NCBI GenBank assembly: GCA_964543385.1
Contig: CAZIYE010000001.1
Span: 551,123 to 615,122 of the forward strand
Length of the DNA: 64,000 nucleotides
DNA from: an uncultured Candidatus Saccharibacteria bacterium
Lineage (GTDB): Bacteria > Patescibacteriota > UBA1384 > XYA2-FULL-43-10 > 1-14-0-10-43-13
Direction of reading: 5' to 3'
The translations under genes were made by a program, and so were the position numbers. Below are positions 6,412-62,725 of this stretch, piece by piece. The notes below the pieces were generated by a model that searched no databases, was not told the DNA's origin, and saw only the letters and a list, made by a program, of their open reading frames with translations. Position 1 is the first letter of the stretch; every line of letters begins with the position of its first letter.

Positions 6412-7176
6412 TCAGCGACTAAATCCCATGCCGGGGTCATCTGGTAAACCGGTGACCGTGTAGGTGGTGGTTTCTTCTATTGTTTCTCCAGTGTCAAGGT
6501 TTGTCACGATGACATGGAGGGTGCCCTCGCCATTAGCTGCGGCGTAGAAGCCATCAGCTGTTTTGGCCAGTGCATTTCTTTCTCCCGGGACATCCCACTC
6601 CGTTTTGATATGGTACCACGAGGTACCAAAACCAATGCGGAAGTAGTGTGCACCGGTGATACTAAAATGCCTGGTGCGATCTGGCATGACTTGGGCCATG
6701 TCTCCAACGGTTGTGTCAAAGACAGTTGTTAATGCAGTGCCAATAGGCGGTTTGGGATTGCAGATAAAGATATACTCACCTGCATTCCATTTGAAGGCGC
6801 CCTGTTGTGCAGTCGCAGTTGCAGTGTAGGCTTTGCCAGCCGCAACTATGGTGCTCAAGGTTGGCATAACTCCTTTTACATCATTGCTGATGCTCAGGCC
6901 CCCCCCAGGGGTGTTTTCGGTCTCGGTCACTTTGATCGTGACCTCTATTGGTAGCGGCTGGGGTGACCAGGTGGCGATTGCCTTCAAGGTCGTGCCAGCG
7001 GTGAGCTTGGTCGTACCCTCGGAGAGGGTGACCATGTTTCCAGCGCCATCCGTGAAACGGAGGCTGAGCCGGGGTTGCTCGTTGGAAGTCGAAGTGGCAC
7101 CAGTGCCACAGCCGGCCAGAATTCCGGCGCAAGCGATGATGAGCAACAGGCTCATGGCTGAGAGGATACGGCGCAT
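6412..7176 (-). CDS. Secreted lipoprotein of unknown function, compositionally foreign (GC-rich)
   Basis: Signal peptide plus lipobox (LLLIIACAGILAGC). The Thr/Gly/Ala-rich beta-type sequence is markedly GC-rich relative to its flanks. Strong SD AAGGAG 6 nt upstream of the ATG. Confidence 0.6.
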   Translation of the reverse strand: MRRILSAMSLLLIIACAGILAGCGTGATSTSNEQPRLSLRFTDGAGNMVTLSEGTTKLTAGTTLKAIATWSPQPLPIEVTIKVTETENTPGGGLSISNDVKGVMPTLSTIVAAGKAYTATATAQQGAFKWNAGEYIFICNPKPPIGTALTTVFDTTVGDMAQVMPDRTRHFSITGAHYFRIGFGTSWYHIKTEWDVPGERNALAKTADGFYAAANGEGTLHVIVTNLDTGETIEETTTYTVTGLPDDPGMGFSR

Positions 7177-15112: not shown

Positions 15113-16756
15113 CTATTTACCTGCTGCTTTAACGAAAGCTATAAAAAGTGGATGAGGTCGGAGCGGGCGTGAAGCTAACTCTGGATGGAACTGTACTCCG
15201 ACGAAGAAAGGATGACTTTCTACTTCTACGATCTCTACTAGATCTCTTTCAGGATTAAGACCACCTATTCTGAGTCCTGCTTTGGTAAGCTGTTCCCTAT
15301 AATCGTTATTAAACTCATAACGATGGCGATGGCGTTCAAGAATCACTGGGAATTCACCTGGGTAGTCCTTGGCTTTATAAGCATCATATGAGATAGACCC
15401 TTTTTGCAGTTCACAAGCATATTCTCCTAGTCTCATAGAGCCGCCGAAGTCTTTCTTCCGAAGTTTCTCTTTTTGATCTTTCATAATGTGAATTACTGGG
15501 TATGGAGTTTTGGAATTTATCTCTTCAGTATGAGCGTCCTTCAGGCCGCAAACATTACGGGCGTATTCGATAGTTGCGATTTGCATGCCATAGCAAAGGC
15601 CAAAATAGGGGATTTTATTCTCACGACAGTATTTTGCTACAGCAATTTTCCCTTCGATCCCACGTGAACCAAAACCTCCAGGCACGATTACGCCGTCAAG
15701 GCTTTTTAACTCTGTTAGCTTCTCGGGATCTTCCTCATATGTAGTAGAGGAGAGCCAGACCATTTCTGGCTTGAAGCCTTGAGACCAAGCAGCATGTTTG
15801 ACCGCTTCAATAACTGAAATATAGGAGTCAGATAATATGAATTCTCCTGTTTCGAAATATTTTCCGATAACTCCGATCTTGATCGGTTTATTTGCTTTCT
15901 TTGATTTATCGACAAAAGCTCGCCATTCTACCAAGTCTTTCCGTCTTGGTTTCAAGTGTAATCTTTTCAAGATCTTCTCACCGAGCTGTTCATTCTCAAA
16001 ATTAACCGGAATTTCATAAATAGAATCGACGTCGGGTGCTGAGACAGCATTTTCTGGCAATATTGAGCAGAATGTGGCTAACTTTTCACGTCTCCTATCA
16101 TCGATTGGATATTCACTACGGCATAGTATAAAGTCCGGTTGAATACCACATGAGTTAAGCTCTCTAGAGGCATGTTGAGTCGGTTTTGTTTTCATCTCCC
16201 CAACTTTTGATGGTATTGGCAAATATGAAACTAATACAAAGATTACGTCATTTGGATGCTCGAGCTTCATCATGCGGGCAGCTTCCAGAAAAAGCAGGTT
16301 TTCATATTCACCTACAGTTCCACCTATTTCGACAATAGAAATTTCAGCCTTTGTTTTTAAAGAAGCAGTTTCTATTCTATTGATTATTTCTTCAGGTACA
16401 TGAGGCACGACCTGAACACATTTTCCACCATATTCAAGATTTCTTTCTTTATTGATTACGGATTGGTAAATACGTCCAGTGGTCATGTAATTCATCTTTG
16501 TAAGATCCTCTCCGATAAAACGCTCATAGTTACCCATGTCTTGATCGGTTTCGTCTCCATCTTTGGTTACAAAAACCTCACCATGTTCAGTTGGGTTCAT
16601 AGTGCCAGCGTCAACATTTACATATGGATCAGCCTTGATTGCAGTTACGCAGAAGCCTTTTGATTTTAGTATTGTTCCTATAGATGCTGCTGCAATGCCC
16701 TTACCTACAGAGGACATAACACCGCCAACTACAAAGATGAATTTTTTCGAAGCCAT
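15113..16756 (-). CDS. pyrG: CTP synthase
   Basis: N-terminus KFIFVVGGVMSSVGKGIAAASIG. Glutamine amidotransferase C-terminus (GLCYGMQ, HPEL). 547 aa. Confidence 0.95.
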   Translation of the reverse strand: MASKKFIFVVGGVMSSVGKGIAAASIGTILKSKGFCVTAIKADPYVNVDAGTMNPTEHGEVFVTKDGDETDQDMGNYERFIGEDLTKMNYMTTGRIYQSVINKERNLEYGGKCVQVVPHVPEEIINRIETASLKTKAEISIVEIGGTVGEYENLLFLEAARMMKLEHPNDVIFVLVSYLPIPSKVGEMKTKPTQHASRELNSCGIQPDFILCRSEYPIDDRRREKLATFCSILPENAVSAPDVDSIYEIPVNFENEQLGEKILKRLHLKPRRKDLVEWRAFVDKSKKANKPIKIGVIGKYFETGEFILSDSYISVIEAVKHAAWSQGFKPEMVWLSSTTYEEDPEKLTELKSLDGVIVPGGFGSRGIEGKIAVAKYCRENKIPYFGLCYGMQIATIEYARNVCGLKDAHTEEINSKTPYPVIHIMKDQKEKLRKKDFGGSMRLGEYACELQKGSISYDAYKAKDYPGEFPVILERHRHRYEFNNDYREQLTKAGLRIGGLNPERDLVEIVEVESHPFFVGVQFHPELASRPLRPHPLFIAFVKAAGK

Positions 16757-16845
16757 ATTTTTCCCAAGATTAAGAATTAAGAGCTAAGGATTAAGCTCAT
16801 ACACACAGCTTAACTCTTACTATCTTATCTCTAATCCAAACAAGC

Positions 16846-16882
16846 AAAAAACTCCGGACGCAATTTTTTTGGAGTTTTTTTT
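16846..16882 (-). promoter_or_regulatory. Terminator-like hairpin in the pyrG 5' leader (candidate attenuator)
   Basis: AAAAAACTCC-ggacgcaattttttt-GGAGTTTTTTTT. It lies between the predicted pyrG promoter (16909-16937) and the ATG. Confidence 0.4.
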
Positions 16883-16908
16883 GAGGATACTATATCGTAT
16901 TTAATGCC

Positions 16909-16937
16909 ATTTTACAGAATTGCCAGAAATAATGCAA
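16909..16937 (-). promoter_or_regulatory. Putative pyrG promoter (TTGCAT-17-TAAAAT on the minus strand)
   Basis: Read on the reverse complement: cTTGCATtatttctggcaattctgTAAAATggc. Confidence 0.4.
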
Positions 16938-16946
16938 GACCTAAGA

Positions 16947-16975
16947 TTGACACAACAACACTTATCTTATATAGT
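16947..16975 (+). promoter_or_regulatory. Near-consensus sigma70 promoter TTGACA-17-TATAGT driving the GC-rich islet 1 small ORF
   Basis: gaTTGACAcaacaacacttatcttaTATAGTgtc. Divergent and back-to-back with the pyrG promoter. Confidence 0.5.
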
Positions 16976-17016
16976 GTCAACACAACGAACCCCCGATCCA
17001 TTCTGAAGGAGACACC

Positions 17017-17175
17017 ATGGGAACAAAGACCGACGCTGCTGATCACAGCCAACAAACCCTACCGCCGGATGTTGCGCCGGTGCACGACTCTGTACTTGCC
17101 GATGGCACTGTCATTAAGGGGAATGAAGAATCCCCTCAGTCAGTGTCGCCCGACAAGAAGCCAATTAGCGGCTAG
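17017..17175 (+). CDS. Small ORF (52 aa), hydrophilic and acidic, in GC-rich islet 1 (hypothetical; not in the ORF track because it is under 60 aa)
   Basis: Strong SD ctGAAGGAGacaccATG. Product MGTKTDAADHSQQTLPPDVAPVHDSVLADGTVIKGNEESPQSVSPDKKPISG. Followed by a 9-bp GC hairpin. The codon usage and GC are atypical for this genome. Confidence 0.3.
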   Translation: MGTKTDAADHSQQTLPPDVAPVHDSVLADGTVIKGNEESPQSVSPDKKPISG

Positions 17176-17199
17176 TCTGCTTGGCACGTTCTTTCTCTT

Positions 17200-17227
17200 G
17201 GGTCCCCGTCGCTTGCGCCGGGGACCC
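17200..17227 (+). terminator. GC-rich hairpin after the islet 1 ORF (GGGTCCCCG-tcgcttgcgc-CGGGGACCC)
   Basis: Perfect 9-bp stem. The T-run (tctatttttt) starts about 17 nt downstream, so this is a non-canonical but plausible terminator. Confidence 0.4.
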
Positions 17228-17250
17228 TTAGCTTATCCCTGTCTATTTTT

Positions 17251-17259
17251 TGGTATAAT
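17251..17259 (+). promoter_or_regulatory. Extended -10 element TGGTATAAT immediately upstream of the NTase gene, implying a leaderless or near-leaderless mRNA
   Basis: ttttttgGTATAATcatcgcataATG. The ATG at 17269 is only 10 nt from the end of the -10 element. Confidence 0.4.
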
Positions 17260-17268
17260 CATCGCATA

Positions 17269-17946
17269 ATGAATCAATACAAAGATAAGTATTTAAAAAG
17301 AACAGTTAGATTCTCAGGGATTCTCCAATGTGTGCCATTTCTGCGTGCAATCATTCTAAATGGCTCTCTAGCAGGAGGTAATATTAAAGAAAGCTCTGAT
17401 ATAGATCTACTTATTATTGCAAGATCAGGGCGGATTTATACCACCAGATTCTTTGTTAATCTACTTGGTAATCTGCTGGGAGAAAAAAGATCGAAGAATG
17501 AAGAGAAGTCTCATGCTGGGAAGTTCTGCTTTAATTATTTTTTAACTGATGGTTATCTTAAAATCCCGACAGGTAGGGGAGAAAAGATGGACAAATATTG
17601 TGCGATGAATTATTCAAGAAGTGTCCTCCTTTGGGGTGATGATAAATTATTTGATAAGTTTCTTGCAATAAATAGTGATTTGTTTGCAAAATTTGGTTGT
17701 TTTTCGTCATTAAATGATTCAAAAGAGCTAGAATATTATTTCCCAGCCAGAAGTATTACTTTTCTCTTGTTTATTAGAAAAATGCAAGAGATTGTTTTTG
17801 GCGGAATGTTTGGTAATTGGATTGAAAGAAGGCTTAAACATTTACAAATAAAAATGATAGAAAGTGACCCGAGAACTAGCAAATTTCCGAGTTTGATCGT
17901 CTATAATGATCAAGAAGCTCGCTTTCATCCACCAAAAAATCTTTAA
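17269..17946 (+). CDS. Pol-beta-superfamily nucleotidyltransferase-fold protein of unknown substrate
   Basis: NTase signature GSLAGGNIKESSDIDLLII (hG[GS]-x9-13-[DE]h[DE]h). 225 aa, no TM. Confidence 0.55.
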   Translation: MNQYKDKYLKRTVRFSGILQCVPFLRAIILNGSLAGGNIKESSDIDLLIIARSGRIYTTRFFVNLLGNLLGEKRSKNEEKSHAGKFCFNYFLTDGYLKIPTGRGEKMDKYCAMNYSRSVLLWGDDKLFDKFLAINSDLFAKFGCFSSLNDSKELEYYFPARSITFLLFIRKMQEIVFGGMFGNWIERRLKHLQIKMIESDPRTSKFPSLIVYNDQEARFHPPKNL

Positions 17947-24246: not shown

Positions 24247-24275
24247 TTGACTAGCAAGAAATTTAGGGGTATAAA
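24247..24275 (+). promoter_or_regulatory. Near-consensus promoter TTGACT-17-TATAAA for the GC-rich islet 2 small ORF
   Basis: catTTGACTagcaagaaatttaggggTATAAAaat. Confidence 0.45.
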
Positions 24276-24332
24276 AATACTTAATCAACCCCCAAGGTTG
24301 ACCATCCAAACCCCATAGGAGGTCACTGTATC

Positions 24333-24497
24333 ATGGCTAGCAAGCCGACAGGTAAAGGTTTCACCTCGTCGCAGATGAAATCTCGAAGGCTCAAGGAGCA
24401 GCGGCAAAAGCGCCGTGAAAGCGAAGCGCTCGAAAAGGCGCGACGTAATCGCGAATCGCAGATGCGGCAACAGGCCCGCCGGTGGCAACCGGCATAA
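24333..24497 (+). CDS. Small highly basic ORF (54 aa) in GC-rich islet 2 (hypothetical; under 60 aa, so absent from the ORF track)
   Basis: Strong SD atAGGAGGtcactgtatcATG. Product MASKPTGKGFTSSQMKSRRLKEQRQKRRESEALEKARRNRESQMRQQARRWQPA. Arginines use CGN codons, unlike host genes. Followed by a GC hairpin. Confidence 0.3.
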   Translation: MASKPTGKGFTSSQMKSRRLKEQRQKRRESEALEKARRNRESQMRQQARRWQPA

Positions 24498-24526
24498 CTT
24501 AGCGCACTAATGCGCACTCATACTAT

Positions 24527-24565
24527 CGGCTCCCTGCACCTCGTGTACGGGAGCCGAAGTCTTTT
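24527..24565 (+). terminator. GC-rich hairpin plus U-tract after the islet 2 ORF (CGGCTCCC-N14-GGGAGCCG aagtcttttc)
   Basis: Perfect 8-bp stem with a U-rich tail. A small GCGCA-ctaa-TGCGC hairpin lies just upstream. Confidence 0.45.
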
Positions 24566-24658: not shown

Positions 24659-27600
24659 ATGACTACAGAAGATGGGGACAAACCAATTGCGGTAGCCGAA
24701 AATCCCGCAGAAGGAAGCGAACTGGAGGAAATCGAAGCATCGGATACCGCTTTGCTGCACAGTGATTTTGATGTGGCTGTTTCTGAGGTTGTGAGTCGAC
24801 AGGAAATAGCGGCTGCAGTTTTTGATGAAGAACAAACCATTTTATCGCAGGCAAGCTCAACGGAAGAATTTATTGGAATTGAGAATGAGACAATCCCGAT
24901 CGAATTAGTGGCTAGTATCCAGGGGATTGAAAAATTATTTGAAGAAATTGACGTAATTGATATTAAGGAATTCCCATCACTGATCCTTAAAATCAAGATA
25001 CTTGCTGATGAAGCAAAAAAATTGCTCAAAAAGTCAGAGGATGGTCTTCAGGCTAGTGGAGGTGAACTTCTTGGTATTGAAAGTGAAATCAAGAAAAAAA
25101 CAACTACTCTGAGTGAGGAAAATGAAAAAGATTTTTGGGGAAAACTTTTCCGCATTGGAGAGCGCAGTTCGCTTAAGAAAGCAATAAAAGATTTGAAGGT
25201 CAAAGAAGGCAAAATTTCTACGATTAAAGATGATCAATTAGGCAGAAAAACTGATGCCGAAAAATTATTAAGAAAAGTTGAAAAATATCTTGATGATACC
25301 ATTGTCAAACTTGTCACTAAGATTTTCCAAAGTTTAAAAGCTGAAACTGAAAAAACTAGAGAAAAAATGACTGATCCGCGGCTAAGAGCTGGTATGAATG
25401 AGCAGCTCGTCGATTCAGAATTTTTACCACTTTTTGAGCAACTAAAATTAGAGGGGAAATATTTTAGCGATGAGGAGATATCCTTTTATCTGCAGCACAG
25501 AAAAGAAATTGCCAGAGACGGGATTCAAGATACGTATAGTATGTCAGCTGAAGATCGAGAAGCATATGAAGCCAAATTTGATCAAATCAGAAAATTAGAG
25601 GAAAGAAGTGGCTATAAATTATACTGGAAGTCAACGGCCCTGAGTCTCGATCCTGATCGAGGTTCGACACCAGATGAGAGATATGACGATATTTTCAAAT
25701 TGTTAACAGAAATAGGTTTGCGCCAAAAAGTTGATGCCGTTCTTGATCTTGTGGGTGATCTTGGTATAAGCACTGAAGCAAAAACGAAAATCTATACTGA
25801 AACGAAGAAGGAGTTCTTGGAATATTATTATAGTTATCAAGATCTAGATAAACGCCCAGACATTCAAGTCTACGCTGATTTTTGTGAAATGCCGGGAGAA
25901 TTGGGAAGATGGCAAACAACTAGGGATATTTGTATAGAGTCCGGCCTGATTGATGAGGCAACTTTCCATCAAGCCGAGGAAATACTAATAGACTATTTAC
26001 AGCAAAAATATCTTAGTAAAAAAGGTGGGGAACCAGATACACAAGTCGAACAGGTTTTTAACTTGGGTAATCCCGGGGTAATCCCCGTTCTTTATCAGTT
26101 TGTAGTTTTGCACGGTAGCCACTCAGGCGAACGGGCAATGAGGCGTCTTCTTACGCTAATAGACGAAAAATATTCCCACGAAGAGGTGCTACAGTCAACC
26201 AAAGATTTGCCAGGTGATGACCAAAAAATTTTTGAGTTGCTCCTTGATAAGGACTCATGTCTTAATAGATTTGCTAGAGAAAGCTATTTATGGACAATGT
26301 TTGGTTACCTGGGAGATCCAAAAAAAACTCTGAGGAATGAGGCATACACCCAGAAATTGCTTGATAGTGGATACCCAGAAGACAAAGCAGCCGAGTTTTT
26401 TACCGGTAGGTGGTGGGGGAAGGACTTACTTATCGGTTGCGTTGAAATTGCCGAGGTCTTGGGCATAGATAAGGAGATAATTATCGAAGATTATTTCAAA
26501 GACATCACTCGTTCAGTTTACCTTGAAAGTCCAGATTCTTTAGAGATTATTGGGTTAGTAGCAAAAGAGCTGGGAGTGCCAGCTCTAGAAATTTATCACC
26601 GCATTGAGTCTGAGATGGTGCGAAGTAAAGAAGATAAGCAAAGCGTTCATTCTCCGCAGGGCATTATTGAATCTTGCAGAGTTTTGTCTGACATTACCGG
26701 CGAAAGCTTGAAAGCTGTGGTTGATCGATACTATCCAATCAAGGCTATTCCAACGTATCAAGAAAAGTACGCTGAAATATTTGAGGAATTAGCACAGATA
26801 CTAGAGGTGCCAGTCGGCTCTCTTGTTTTAGAGAATCTCTTACCACAATTGTCATCCAAAAGGGGAGATAGAGGCGGACTCTATATTGTCAATAGCAAGG
26901 ATAAAAGAAATTTTTTATTCAATTCTGTTAGCTCTTTTTTACAAACCAATCCCGTACTTAGTTCCACAGAAGATTATTGCAAAATTTTCAACCTATTCGA
27001 TGAATTAAATAAAGATTGGTTGGGCTCTGATTTTGAAAAATTTTCTGATGAAGAAAAAGAGAAGATAAATTCAGGCAAAGTTGATCTTGCTAGATCCTTT
27101 GGAGAGATTTTAGCAAAAGGCGGAAATCGAGAAGAGATTATTCGGGCAATTCGGGCATTTGCTCCGGTTATATCTCTGGATGACTCAAAGTATGCTGAAA
27201 TATTTACTCTTTTGGCTGAAACAATGGAAATGGCTCCAGAGTCGTTGGTATCAGAAACGCTTATTTTCGACGAAAAGCTCGGACTTATTCTACCAAAAAT
27301 CAAAAAAAGTGACTCAAGGTGTTTGATCGGAAAGGCACTTTTTGAATTGGCCAAAACCGATCGAGTCCTAAGTTCTGCCAAAGAGATTAAAAAAGTTTTT
27401 AATGCTTTGTCGGCCCTCCAGTTGATTGGGGCAGAAGAAGATCCATCTGATGAAGAAATCAAGGTTATTTTTGAAACAAAGGAATACCTGATTGGCTATG
27501 TGAGGGAAAAAATGAAGAATGATCCAAATAAAATAGACATAATTGGAACACTTATTTCCCTCAAATCAGTTACCTTCCAAGACTTGTTGCTATTTTCATC

Positions 27601-30286
27601 TTTCCGAGAAGAATTTCCTGACTCGCAGACCTTTGAAAAGATTTTTTCGGATGGTTTAATTGCAATTGATCCTAATTTGCAGGAAATTTTTGATAATCCT
27701 AGGAAACTCGGCACAATGAGACCGCAAATTATTTCAAAAATTATCGATTATATTGAGGAGGCTTACAAGGGAGAGGAGATTGATAATGAAAAAATAGCCA
27801 AGGAACTTCTTTCTTTGCTGAATAATATTCGTCATATCTTCGAAAGTAGTGATTCCACGATTATAGAAAAGCGTTCTCTCTTCTTGGAGAAATATACTTT
27901 AGAAGATGCCAAAGATCCTGATTTTAAAATTGCAGTCGAATCATTAATGGAACAAGGGCTGTCATTGCACGAAGCGATTAAGCAGCTTGTTCAGGGTGAT
28001 TTTGAAGATATTTTAATCGCCTCTGGTAGTATTGATATGCAAAAACACTACAAAAAGAAGCTGAAAGACCCAAATATATCAGAAGAAGATCGGTTGGACT
28101 TAGAGAAAAAGCTTAAGTGGATGAAAGAGGCGTACCTACAAGCTGACCAGAGAAATAGAGAAATTTTTCAACGACTGCAGAGAGGGGGCCTGACAGAAGA
28201 GGAAAGAGCAGAAATTGCTTGTCCGCTAGCAACAAGTGTATCCCAAGTTGGTCCTCCAGATGTCACTTACCCGATCCTTGACCAAGGCACTCTATGTGAT
28301 GCTTTACTTGGTGAAATTGCTAAAGACCAGGAGAATAATCTTGGAGCTCATATTTCAAAAACAAGTCGTGTACCAGGAGATAGAAGTACTTTGGCTGGTA
28401 GATTGCCTTCTTATGGTAATCCTCATGGCACTCAGGTCAACCGTATCTATGGAGATGTCAGTGCTAATAAATATCAGTCATATGGACCGGATGGTACAGC
28501 AGAAACACACTTTCAGATGGGGCCAGCTCATCAATGCATTATGCTCGGTCTCCCCAGTACCGAAATATCTGCCATTGTTATTTCTGATACCTCCTTTCTT
28601 GCGGACCAAAAGAAGTACATTGCCATGAAAAACTTGTTTATTCCAATTCTCGATTCCAGTGGCAATAATCTCTGGACTCCTGAAGAGTTCGATCAAATGA
28701 AAATATTTTATTATGCGCTGAATTATAAGGGCTATCCCTTAGCCGTTATTGATAATGTTTATAAATATTATCTGGAACTAAATCAGACAACTGAGAAAAC
28801 AAAACATAATATTGTCTTGAATAAGGCCGTTGATTTGGTTAAAAAGCAGATAGAAAATGATGAACAAGGTTTTGAGGATTTGGCGGTGCTCGTTGACTTC
28901 TTGAAGAGCAATGATCTTAACACCAAGGATATTCAATGGTATGAGGAGGCAGATTTCGAGCAAGTGATGCAAATGGTTGAAGAAAATGTCGGCGCAAAAA
29001 ATCGTTGGAAAGCGAGGGATATACTCTTCATATATCCGGATGACCAAGCTAAAACTCATAGAACAATTGGCGATAGCGTTGATTATGAAAGGCAGATAAC
29101 GAGGCGTCCCCATGGTTTCATCGACTCATTTCTGGACGATCAGCTTGGATACATTTCCCCTGGAAATATAGATGAAAGACGAGCTGCCGAAGGCCACCTA
29201 ACAAGTTTAATGTTCCGCGATTCGATTTCAAGGCAGGCGCGAGAAGGCATAATTGTTGATGACGTGATTGAAACTGCAGAGTATATGACAGAAAAGAAGA
29301 AGGAGCTGATGGTCAAGATTTGGGAAGACGCATGGGAAGATATATTGAAGATGGATTCCATTGATAAAGCTATGGCGGGGCTTTATAAAAAGGCAATAAT
29401 CCCAGTTGTGACTGGTAGCGGTGGCCGAGGAGAGATAACGTTGGGCTCAGATTTGGATTATTCACTTCTAGTTGATGATGATCACTTGTTGGAAATACTT
29501 CCGGAGAGAACTGATCTAGCTCAATTTATTAAAGATCTTGGTAATTTTGTTAATAATGTTCTGGCCATATCAATTAATAAGTCTTTAGGTGAAGCGGGGA
29601 TCAGAGCTGATGCTGGATTGGCACGGAAAGACCGGCAACCGTTTAGCCTGATTAGTCGGATTCGGCAATTTGAGATTAATCCTTCTCAGGGCCGCCAGGA
29701 AGAAGAGCCGACTGAGATTATTAGTAATTATCCTCTTTTTGCAGAACACCAAGGGATTGTAGCTAAATGCAAGGAAGATCTGATTGTTCACAATCAATCT
29801 GCCCATCTACTAGACTCATATATTCTTCGAGATCTGGAAACTGGCTTTGGAAAGGCTTCTTTCACGGCTGAATTTGAGAAATTATATGCCTGTGCAGCAA
29901 GTGGAGAATTATTGCAAAAAATTAAAGAATCACTCCAGCGTTCGTTAGTCTTCAAAATTAACTATCTTCTCTTTTCTGCTTTTGACAAGGGAACTATAGA
30001 TCCGAGTGAGGCTAGTAAAATCCCTTCTGGAACGATTGATACAATTAATTTTCTTAAAGATCATAAAATTTTGACTGATCAAGAAGCGGAAATTTGTATT
30101 GAATTATGGGCAATCACTTACAAAATTAGATTTTTGGGGGAAGTATTCTCTCCAGAAGGTCAGAATGCAGATGAGCTCAAGAAGGTGAAGAATATTACAT
30201 TCAAACTAGATGATATATCCTTTGCCGAAAGAGTTCGCCTTTTCGATCTGCTTAAGCTTTTCAAGGATAATGTACTTTATAAATAG
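24659..30286 (+). CDS. Giant (1875 aa) cytoplasmic multidomain protein. N-terminal acidic/coiled-coil region, long alpha-helical repeat region, and a C-terminal GlnD/GlnE (DUF294)-type nucleotidyltransferase domain.
   Basis: No signal peptide or TM. Internal repeats YAEIFEELAQILEVP / YAEIFTLLAETMEMAP. C-terminal motif PVVTGSGGRGEITLGSDLDYSLLV matches the DUF294/GlnD consensus GSLGRGEQtLaSDqDnalif. No P-loop or kinase motifs. Confidence 0.6.
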   Translation: MTTEDGDKPIAVAENPAEGSELEEIEASDTALLHSDFDVAVSEVVSRQEIAAAVFDEEQTILSQASSTEEFIGIENETIPIELVASIQGIEKLFEEIDVIDIKEFPSLILKIKILADEAKKLLKKSEDGLQASGGELLGIESEIKKKTTTLSEENEKDFWGKLFRIGERSSLKKAIKDLKVKEGKISTIKDDQLGRKTDAEKLLRKVEKYLDDTIVKLVTKIFQSLKAETEKTREKMTDPRLRAGMNEQLVDSEFLPLFEQLKLEGKYFSDEEISFYLQHRKEIARDGIQDTYSMSAEDREAYEAKFDQIRKLEERSGYKLYWKSTALSLDPDRGSTPDERYDDIFKLLTEIGLRQKVDAVLDLVGDLGISTEAKTKIYTETKKEFLEYYYSYQDLDKRPDIQVYADFCEMPGELGRWQTTRDICIESGLIDEATFHQAEEILIDYLQQKYLSKKGGEPDTQVEQVFNLGNPGVIPVLYQFVVLHGSHSGERAMRRLLTLIDEKYSHEEVLQSTKDLPGDDQKIFELLLDKDSCLNRFARESYLWTMFGYLGDPKKTLRNEAYTQKLLDSGYPEDKAAEFFTGRWWGKDLLIGCVEIAEVLGIDKEIIIEDYFKDITRSVYLESPDSLEIIGLVAKELGVPALEIYHRIESEMVRSKEDKQSVHSPQGIIESCRVLSDITGESLKAVVDRYYPIKAIPTYQEKYAEIFEELAQILEVPVGSLVLENLLPQLSSKRGDRGGLYIVNSKDKRNFLFNSVSSFLQTNPVLSSTEDYCKIFNLFDELNKDWLGSDFEKFSDEEKEKINSGKVDLARSFGEILAKGGNREEIIRAIRAFAPVISLDDSKYAEIFTLLAETMEMAPESLVSETLIFDEKLGLILPKIKKSDSRCLIGKALFELAKTDRVLSSAKEIKKVFNALSALQLIGAEEDPSDEEIKVIFETKEYLIGYVREKMKNDPNKIDIIGTLISLKSVTFQDLLLFSSFREEFPDSQTFEKIFSDGLIAIDPNLQEIFDNPRKLGTMRPQIISKIIDYIEEAYKGEEIDNEKIAKELLSLLNNIRHIFESSDSTIIEKRSLFLEKYTLEDAKDPDFKIAVESLMEQGLSLHEAIKQLVQGDFEDILIASGSIDMQKHYKKKLKDPNISEEDRLDLEKKLKWMKEAYLQADQRNREIFQRLQRGGLTEEERAEIACPLATSVSQVGPPDVTYPILDQGTLCDALLGEIAKDQENNLGAHISKTSRVPGDRSTLAGRLPSYGNPHGTQVNRIYGDVSANKYQSYGPDGTAETHFQMGPAHQCIMLGLPSTEISAIVISDTSFLADQKKYIAMKNLFIPILDSSGNNLWTPEEFDQMKIFYYALNYKGYPLAVIDNVYKYYLELNQTTEKTKHNIVLNKAVDLVKKQIENDEQGFEDLAVLVDFLKSNDLNTKDIQWYEEADFEQVMQMVEENVGAKNRWKARDILFIYPDDQAKTHRTIGDSVDYERQITRRPHGFIDSFLDDQLGYISPGNIDERRAAEGHLTSLMFRDSISRQAREGIIVDDVIETAEYMTEKKKELMVKIWEDAWEDILKMDSIDKAMAGLYKKAIIPVVTGSGGRGEITLGSDLDYSLLVDDDHLLEILPERTDLAQFIKDLGNFVNNVLAISINKSLGEAGIRADAGLARKDRQPFSLISRIRQFEINPSQGRQEEEPTEIISNYPLFAEHQGIVAKCKEDLIVHNQSAHLLDSYILRDLETGFGKASFTAEFEKLYACAASGELLQKIKESLQRSLVFKINYLLFSAFDKGTIDPSEASKIPSGTIDTINFLKDHKILTDQEAEICIELWAITYKIRFLGEVFSPEGQNADELKKVKNITFKLDDISFAERVRLFDLLKLFKDNVLYK

Positions 30287-30360: not shown

Positions 30361-31728
30361 ATGAAAAAAATGAACAAAAAACAATCTGTTGCCCTAAGCT
30401 CGGTTTTTGCTAGTTTTGGTTTGACGGCTATGAAGTTAGTTGTAGGTATCGCTACTGGCAGTATGGGTATAATCTCTGAGGCAGCTCACTCAGCATTGGA
30501 TTTTGTTGCCGCTTTAATGACCTATTTCGCAGTTAACATTGGAGATAAACCTGCTGATAAGAGGCACCCTTATGGCCATGCTAAGGTTGAAAGTGTCTCT
30601 GCACTCTTAGAGACATGTTTGCTTGTCCTTACTAGCGCGTGGATAATCTATGAGGCAGTAAAAAGGTTAATTCACGGCAAATCGGAGGTTGAAGTTGCTT
30701 GGTATTCATTCACTGTGATAATAATCTCTATTGTCGTGGACATATCTCGGTCTAGAGCACTTTCTAAGGTTGCAAAAGAGACTAAAAGCCAGGCTCTGGA
30801 AGCCGACGCTTTACATTTCAGTTCAGACATTTTAAGCTCCTTGGTCGTTCTGGTGGGATTAATCTTTGTTTATTTCGGCAATACCACAGCTGACTCAATC
30901 GCAGCGATCATAGTTTCTTTTGTAGTACTATATGCTGCCTATGATCTAGGGCGTAAGACAATTAACGTTTTAGTAGATACTGCTCCAGAGGGTTTGGTTG
31001 ATGAAATAAATCAGGCTGCCAGTAGTGTTGCCGGTGTCATAGGAGTTGAAAAAATTCGTGCCAGAGCAGTTGGGGCGGCAGTAATCATCGATATCACAGT
31101 ATATCTGCACAGAAAAAACAATCTTCTCCTAACTCAAAAAATCTGCCAGCAAATAGAGGATAAAATAAAAAAAGATTTTTCCGATTCCGATATTACTATT
31201 CATACTAAACCTCTGCCACTAAATAGCGAAACAATTTTCGAAAGGGTTCAATTAATTGCCTCGACACATGGTCTCGCGGCCCATAATATTATTTTACACA
31301 GAGACTTCAAGGGCAAAAAATTAGACTTTGATCTTGAGGTTGATGGTAATTTAAACTTGCAAGAGGCTCACAGAATAGCTTCAGATTTGGAAAGAGAGAT
31401 AGAAGCTGAATTCGGGGATATAGAAATAAATAGTCATATAGAACCACTGAAATCCGAGATTATCTCCGGGAAAAATGTAAGTGGAGTGAAAGAGGCGAAG
31501 TTAAAAAACAAAATTTTACTTATAACAAGAAACATTCCTCTCATAAGAGACATTCATGATATTTCAATAATTGAGGATAATGATAAACTTTTCATTTCCC
31601 TCCATTGTCTATTCGACAAAAATTCTTCTCTGGATGAAGTTCACAGCGTAACGAGTAGACTTGAATACACAATTCGCGAAAATATGTCTGAGGTCTCCAA
31701 GGTTTCTATCCACGCTGAGCCAGCCTAA
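30361..31728 (+). CDS. Cation diffusion facilitator (CDF) family divalent-metal efflux transporter with extended C-terminal cytoplasmic domain
   Basis: HSALDFVAALMTYFAVNIGDKPADKRHPYGHAKVESVSAL (CDF signature). 6 TM. Confidence 0.85.
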   Translation: MKKMNKKQSVALSSVFASFGLTAMKLVVGIATGSMGIISEAAHSALDFVAALMTYFAVNIGDKPADKRHPYGHAKVESVSALLETCLLVLTSAWIIYEAVKRLIHGKSEVEVAWYSFTVIIISIVVDISRSRALSKVAKETKSQALEADALHFSSDILSSLVVLVGLIFVYFGNTTADSIAAIIVSFVVLYAAYDLGRKTINVLVDTAPEGLVDEINQAASSVAGVIGVEKIRARAVGAAVIIDITVYLHRKNNLLLTQKICQQIEDKIKKDFSDSDITIHTKPLPLNSETIFERVQLIASTHGLAAHNIILHRDFKGKKLDFDLEVDGNLNLQEAHRIASDLEREIEAEFGDIEINSHIEPLKSEIISGKNVSGVKEAKLKNKILLITRNIPLIRDIHDISIIEDNDKLFISLHCLFDKNSSLDEVHSVTSRLEYTIRENMSEVSKVSIHAEPA

Positions 31729-62548: not shown

Positions 62549-62725
62549 TCATGCAGTCACCTGCAGTGGCACATTCTGCGAGTAGGTCTTTGGAAGACCA
62601 TGACCATCGCATATTGGGCAAGTGATGTCTCTTGCATCGAATACGTTCCCGCATTCTTCGCAGAGCTTATCGCCAGTCCCAACAGTTTGCTGACGGTTGT
62701 CAGCATCGGTGTCCATATTAGGCAT
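62549..62725 (-). CDS. Small zinc-ribbon protein (58 aa; CxxC-N17-CxxC) in GC-elevated islet 3
   Basis: Strong SD AAGGAGGtcatcATG on the minus strand. Product MPNMDTDADNRQQTVGTGDKLCEECGNVFDARDITCPICDGHGLPKTYSQNVPLQVTA. Co-directional with flanking operon genes. GC-rich hairpin GGCGATGGG...CCCATCGCC downstream. Confidence 0.4.
   Translation of the reverse strand: MPNMDTDADNRQQTVGTGDKLCEECGNVFDARDITCPICDGHGLPKTYSQNVPLQVTA

Follow-up and report, generated by a model that had tools for sequence, protein, structure and literature searches.

Organisation of the GC-rich islet

The DNA analysed here (the window) is a stretch of 64,000 nucleotides from contig CAZIYE010000001.1, within which a GC-rich islet is located directly upstream of a gene encoding a 225-residue nucleotidyltransferase (NTase) of the Pol-beta superfamily (17269–17946, + strand), the latter assignment being based on sub-threshold matches to Pfam Polbeta/NTP_transf_2. 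The islet opens with a predicted sigma-70-type promoter (16947–16975, + strand), read from the sequence as TTGACA at 16947–16952 and TATAGT at 16970–16975 with a 17-nt spacer, which matches the consensus at 11 of 12 positions. This is followed on the same strand by a putative 5' UTR (16983–17016; the transcription start was placed from the position of the −10 hexamer), with the Shine-Dalgarno (SD) sequence GAAGGAG at 17005–17011, and then by an open reading frame of 52 codons plus stop (17017–17175), referred to as pep1, that extends from the ATG at 17017 to the TAG at 17173–17175. The predicted product, MGTKTDAADHSQQTLPPDVAPVHDSVLADGTVIKGNEESPQSVSPDKKPISG, is an acidic and hydrophilic microprotein, an example of its tryptic peptides being TDAADHSQQTLPPDVAPVHDSVLADGTVIK. 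The islet closes with a GC-rich, terminator-like hairpin (17200–17227, + strand) with 9-bp arms, GGGTCCCCG (17200–17208) and CGGGGACCC (17219–17227), and a calculated energy of −22.1 kcal/mol (z = −3.8). Only a weak U-tail is present, with 4 T among the next 8 bases and no canonical U-tract, so the efficiency of termination is uncertain. An initial sequence-only reading had described the promoter, SD, 52-residue ORF and 9-bp GC hairpin, and all are present.

Four independent assemblies carry the islet with the same sequence, and the exact proteins are found also on a 671-kb NCBI contig, indicating that the islet is not an assembly artefact. The organism is present in the samples SRR12261223, SRR12261224, SRR12261227 and JGI 3300045131. 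The pep1 gene is apparently unannotated in the NCBI record, the cluster look-up sources being JGI and Logan only. When the flanks were read for direct repeats that might represent an insertion signature, just an imperfect and unconvincing pair, GACCTAAG / GACCCTTAG, was found.

A further hairpin, comprising AAAAAACTCC, a variable loop of 15–21 nt and GGAGTTTTTTTT, and followed by GAGGATACTAT, is located at 16846–16893. Of the seven other syntenic lineages, six retain it, always in the gap upstream of the NTase gene; in L085 it is unrecognisable. The stem is invariant, save that the A-run is shorter in L096, and the loop varies freely. Even L096, which has a bAvd gene in place of pyrG on the left, carries the hairpin. 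No Rfam family matched this element, which may act as a bidirectional terminator or as an attenuator in the pyrG leader.

Conservation of the islet as a protein-coding gene

Relatives of the locus were reached via orthologues of the 225-residue NTase, the order of genes being ATPase, pyrG (− strand), gap, NTase, groES and groEL. Homologous cassettes were identified in the pyrG/NTase gap of two of them, L086/L092 (GCA_964409395.1) and L094/L095, with ORFs at L086:2760–2912 and L094:1536–1691 that translate to MCSAEETAETADHNLPDVAPVHKSILSDGTVREFEEFPQSVSPDKKPMNG and MCSAEETGKTVNHNLPDVAPVHDSILFDGTIIKGFEESPETVPSNKKPMNG, respectively. In the alignment, the L086 and L094 cassettes have the same two promoter hexamers as the window, at the same 17-nt distance. 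Since three matches of 11 of 12 positions were seen in the window against 2.9 expected, i.e. the chance rate, promoter strength was dropped as evidence by itself, and it is conservation, as opposed to the consensus match, that makes the promoter call credible. The SD core AGGAG is kept in all three homologues, 5–8 nt 5' of the ATG. Gene callers over-extend the ORFs of the relatives upstream through the promoter, to 89–94 residues, and the true start was recognised in these because the conserved SD marks it. The terminal hairpin has counterparts of −20.2 kcal/mol in L086 and −20.7 kcal/mol in L094, with stem positions 4–5 changed from UC to CU and the opposite arm from GA to AG, two compensatory changes that preserve pairing. 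By alignment, then, the predicted promoter hexamers, SD and terminal hairpin of the cassette are conserved, and the description of the islet as a complete mini-gene was borne out.

Differences from the window copy at codon positions 1/2/3 number 14/10/29 and 18/9/28 for the two homologues (chi-square p = 0.003 and 0.007). The value of dN/dS is approximately 0.19–0.27, falling to 0.08 in a conserved block that spans the C-terminal two-thirds, and both indels among the homologues are of whole codons. These statistics derive from two deep comparisons in which dS is saturated (1.3–1.7), among three distinct homologues in all, two of them close. The third-position excess, low dN/dS and whole-codon indels, together with retention of the frame, indicate that the islet is protein-coding, and on this comparative evidence 17017–17175 is judged to encode a protein under purifying selection. 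A 121-residue ORF in another frame spans 16904–17269; it had been regarded as spurious, correctly so, given that the frame is closed in L086.

The alternative raised at the outset, that the islet specifies a structured non-coding or dual-function RNA in which the ORF is incidental, draws on the presence of a GC-rich transcribed segment inside an AT-rich genome, on the match between the rise in GC and the transcribed part, and on the high synonymous GC shared by the three hosts, a possible sign of constraint at the RNA level. However, Rfam 15 gave no match across the whole window at gathering thresholds, and at E ≤ 10 the region 16750–17400 gave four noise matches, all upstream of 16916 and none within the islet; a search for tRNA and tmRNA found none. 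The putative transcript folds with a z of −1.17, with 22 of 200 shuffles folding equally well, and in RNAalifold analysis of the three homologues only the terminal hairpin shows convincing compensatory changes, the covariation term elsewhere being small (−2.5 kcal/mol). The idea, also from RNAalifold, that a pyrimidine tract in the 3' UTR occludes the SD was rejected, as the duplex energies are those of shuffles in all three homologues. The covariance checks suggested by the sequence-only reading therefore count against its RNA alternative and, with substitutions that remain codon-periodic while dS is saturated, the RNA reading is rejected as highly improbable. The view that the islet is no gene at all, and merely an ORF that arose by chance within a GC-rich spacer, is scarcely credible: neither a 52-codon ORF nor an 11/12 promoter is remarkable by itself, but the frame, peptide motifs, SD, promoter and hairpin have all been kept where synonymous sites are saturated, and the comparative data effectively refute it.

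Properties of the peptide

The pep1 peptide and its homologues have pI values of 4.5–4.8 (4.6 for the window copy), net charges of −4 to −6 and GRAVY scores of −0.5 to −0.7. A Kyte-Doolittle scan revealed no hydrophobic or transmembrane segment in these peptides, the maximum 11-residue mean being ≤1.27, and a type I toxin or membrane microprotein was accordingly discounted. Invariant positions cluster in L-PDVAPVH-S-L-DGT, EE-P and KKP--G when the three peptides are compared, and all three end in KKP(I/M)(S/N)G. The AF2 model of pep1 is mostly coil (mean pLDDT 69), with a short beta-hairpin at residues 25–33, surrounding the invariant DG, as the lone regular element. The protein is predicted to be soluble and mostly disordered.

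No family was found for any of the three peptides in Pfam-A, NCBIfam, PHROGs or PADLOC (E ≤ 0.1 to 1), and a PDB profile search with the pep1 peptides gave no match at E ≤ 10. A word-indexed search of 5.8 billion proteins returned the query only, a profile search returned the L086 protein only, and an exhaustive HMMER search, covering 1.84 billion representatives, recovered the L086 protein and, beyond it, only noise from repeat proteins (P0078, P0080–82). Degenerate peptide patterns and a DNA pattern run against JGI metagenome contigs gave chance matches only (L104, L090/L091), and no pep1 match was present among IMG/VR, the INPHARED phages or the PLSDB plasmids. The family is so narrow that no function can be transferred from known proteins. 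Pep1 is best placed in a new family of its own, a very small and previously unclassified one among the bacterial microproteins, and is an object of an ordinary kind.

A Pup- or ubiquitin-like Gly tag and a RiPP precursor were considered and set aside, the C-terminus being neither GGQ nor GGE. No ligase, YcaO, radical-SAM or ThiF-like gene is present among the recorded Pfam domains of the neighbours. The resemblance of pep1 to Pup extends to small size, acidity and disorder, and no further.

Distribution of the cassette

The cassette is carried by the window, L086/L092 and L094/L095, and is lacking from L085, L087, L089, L093 and L096, i.e. from five of the eight syntenic NTase loci. The gap between pyrG and the NTase gene is 512 bp in the window versus 116–234 bp in L085, L087 and L089, and in L087 the flanking sequences can be aligned to either side of a cleanly missing ∼290 bp. 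L093 and L096, in whose visible stretch pyrG does not appear as the left neighbour, have 187–219 bp upstream of the NTase gene and likewise no cassette there. The pyrG genes of the window, L086/L094, L087 and L089 are 80–83% identical and hence about equidistant, and the patchy presence of the cassette among equidistant lineages implies repeated loss or repeated gain. Identity between the window copy and the others is 53–58% for pep1 and 55–59% for the NTase, a similarity in divergence that is compatible with long residence at the locus. No cassette was found at 80 pyrG-anchored loci in GTDB representative genomes (pyrG identity ≤ 68%). The relatives of pyrG in public genomes are all from Patescibacteria metagenome-assembled genomes, and the genes of the window are typical of Patescibacteria (CPR). 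As judged from these alignments, the pep1 cassette is a lineage-restricted accessory gene of a few related Patescibacteria.

Relationship with the nucleotidyltransferase and origin of the cassette

The 225-residue NTase has 70 homologues in Patescibacteria, with invariant residues that include N31, G32, S33, D44, D46, C87, C111 and H220. Its AF2 model (pLDDT 95) has a weak resemblance to the MNT/ANT fold, with a best TM of 0.37, and sequence matches to known enzymes are restricted to the catalytic motif. It is an uncharacterised, syntenically conserved enzyme without a close solved structure. The identity of the NTase was discarded as a clue to pep1, the MNT/ANT likeness being weak (TM ≤ 0.37) and without a tie to the peptide. 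The gene is preceded by the extended −10 promoter TGGTATAAT (17251–17259, + strand), which is outside the cassette and marks the independence of the latter; both the terminal hairpin and this promoter lie between pep1 and the NTase gene. The element TGnTATAAT precedes the NTase ATG by 9–10 nt (9 nt in the window) not only in the window, L086 and L094 but also in L087, which lacks the cassette, and in none of these does the gene have an SD. The NTase gene therefore has a promoter of its own, and its mRNA is probably translated with almost no leader.

The sequence-only reading had pointed to a second islet with the same architecture, located upstream of the other NTase-containing gene in the window, and had proposed that the pairing of small gene and NTase may be functional. 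The second islet (24247–24557) encodes pep2, a very basic peptide of 54 residues (MASKPTGKGF...RRWQPA, pI 11.9), and has homologues at L092:17024–17191 and L122:9102–9263, always just after ychF (− strand). The pep2 promoter, a stem in the 5' UTR (UCAACC...GGUUGA) and the hairpin are conserved in L092 and L122, and on this alignment evidence islet 2 is considered a real gene too. The similarity in architecture was upheld, whereas the pairing was not, and the islets have no sequence homology to each other. In both L092 and L122, pep2 is followed directly by a cation-efflux gene, the orthologue of that at 30361 in the window (18 of 20 N-terminal residues are identical in L092, and in L122 it is a Cation_efflux gene of 455 residues), without the giant NTase protein, which is thus not a conserved neighbour. 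The latter, an 1875-residue protein with a DUF294-like NTase segment (24659–30286), has no counterpart at this place in either L092 or L122 and looks like an insertion of 5.6 kb specific to the lineage of the window. Furthermore, L122 carries pep2 without pep1, indicating that the two cassettes are mutually independent.

The claim that a sharp rise in GC is embedded in AT-rich DNA was confirmed, the islet having a GC content of 0.53–0.59 versus 0.386 for the whole window. The GC3 of pep1 is 0.55, versus 0.337 ± 0.022 for 28 host genes. Measured against simulations of the same peptide with host codons, z is 3.7, and the pep1 value is reached by 0.03% of them; codon usage that had been called foreign is therefore, in quantitative terms, atypical. 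Approximately half of the GC excess of the islet stems from amino acid composition and half from synonymous choice. The copies of pep1 in the relatives have a GC3 of ∼0.50 versus 0.34–0.39 for their hosts, and pep2 has a GC3 of 0.62 in the window versus 0.43–0.48 in relatives. Two further genes have a similar character. A zinc-ribbon mini-gene of 58 residues (62549–62725, − strand) encodes a CxxC...CxxC protein and has a GGAGG SD, a strong hairpin (GGCGATGGGAGGG...CCCCCATCGCC) and an enriched GC content, and a lipoprotein-like gene of 254 residues (6412–7176, − strand), which gave no family match, has a GC content of 54% and a GC3 of 0.59 (z = 8.7), along with a TTGACA-17-TAATAT promoter, an AAGGAG SD and a GC hairpin. 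The window therefore contains at least four self-contained, GC3-enriched mini-genes.

It is very improbable that pep1 serves the NTase as a partner, whether by being its substrate, by regulating it or by acting as a carrier that is nucleotidylylated, for example, on the invariant C-terminal Gly. The cassette does immediately precede the NTase gene on the same strand in all three carrier lineages, and all three peptides end in KKPxxG, but the cassette is missing next to five of the eight syntenic NTase orthologues, the terminator and promoter are separate, the second pairing dissolves in L092 and L122, and the two peptides share no homology and carry opposite charges (pI 4.6 versus 11.9). The constant position upstream of the NTase is attributable to shared synteny; the islet–NTase link is not conserved among the relatives, and the adjacent NTase does not depend on the cassette. 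The notion that, within the carrier lineages, the neighbouring NTase uses pep1 as a C-terminal-Gly substrate is more speculative still. A separate matter, concerning origin and not function, is whether the cassette is foreign DNA from a GC-richer donor, such as a phage, a plasmid or a GC-rich relative. This is possible though doubtful: the GC3 of 0.55 versus a host value of 0.34, the three other self-contained GC-rich mini-genes with the same signature, the patchy presence among equidistant lineages and the moron-like architecture (PMC3594210) would all be in keeping with it. However, homologues are found at exactly the same locus with a peptide divergence like that of the NTase, which fits vertical residence with losses; a foreign composition should have ameliorated by now, yet all copies are GC3-enriched; and the phage, plasmid and IMG/VR collections contain no match.

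Comparison with known systems and a proposed role

Whatever its source, the islet is very probably an autonomous monocistronic unit that encodes a soluble, acidic and largely disordered protein of 52 residues, and that behaves as a moron-like accessory gene in the pyrG/NTase gap. The near-consensus promoter would drive a constitutive transcript of ∼245 nt ending at the hairpin, and the protein would be expected to remain in the cytoplasm. It may dock on a larger partner via the core LPDVAPVHxSxLxDGT, with its predicted small beta-hairpin, and the C-terminal KKPxxG tail, which is purely inferential. The presence or absence of the unit would likewise be moron-like, with some lineages carrying the cassette and sister lineages cleanly lacking it.

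A phage moron is a single small gene with its own promoter and terminator and a deviant GC content, inserted as 'more DNA' between genes that are adjacent in relatives (PMC3594210). The pep1 cassette is similar in having its own promoter and a hairpin of −20 to −22 kcal/mol, in its deviating composition (GC 0.56 versus 0.386), and in being extra DNA in the pyrG–NTase gap. It differs in lying between chromosomal housekeeping genes of a 0.67-Mb Patescibacteria genome, with pyrG, groES, groEL, efp and rpsR in the surroundings, and in appearing long resident at one locus. It is not in a phage or prophage setting, and no match was present in INPHARED, PLSDB, IMG/VR or PHROGs; the cassette is thus moron-like in its workings but no moron.

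Pep1 also resembles the intergenic microproteins of fewer than 70 residues described in a survey of Enterobacteriaceae ismORFs (PMC11188072) and a review of small proteins in Gram-positive bacteria (PMC10730256), in that it is intergenic, lineage-restricted, called inconsistently, and recognisable only via comparative evidence of purifying selection. Unlike these, it has no family, is hydrophilic, disordered and not a membrane peptide, and has unusually complete expression signals and a marked GC3 excess. The likeness to the MNT-HEPN (type VII) toxin–antitoxin modules consists of a Pol-beta NTase gene that adjoins a small gene in the same orientation. Conversely, pep1 has 52 residues, is predicted to be disordered and has no Rx4-6H HEPN motif, the 225-residue NTase has a large helical C-terminal domain and resembles MntA only in the catalytic motif, and the two genes are predicted to form separate transcripts, with a co-occurrence that is not conserved.

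The analysis turns a compositional anomaly into a clear annotation, that of a genuine microprotein gene, and removes a tempting link between small gene and NTase as unsupported. In the tiny genomes of Patescibacteria, almost any gene that has been kept can be presumed important. For this reason, conserved and strongly signalled microproteins are reasonable targets for metaproteomics or co-culture. The consistent GC3 excess could, in addition, guide the search for missed small genes in AT-rich genomes. A tentative and rather unlikely extension is that the four mini-genes belong to a pool of chromosomal moron-like cassettes that are gained, lost and exchanged as whole promoter-to-hairpin units between the genomes of ultra-small Patescibacteria. 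Were this so, the high synonymous GC would be maintained for a reason, perhaps because short mRNAs are thereby protected in an AT-rich, RNase-exposed transcriptome, or through repeated re-import from GC-richer relatives.

On the other side of the NTase gene, the gap between it and groES is a variable spot in the relatives (L085:3691–4453, L087:2040–2551 and L089:3784–5583). It is occupied by a receiver-like gene of 125 residues in L085, by an uncalled Cys-rich ORF of ∼70 residues with an SD and a hairpin in L087, and by a gene of 291 residues together with an N6/N4 methyltransferase in L089.
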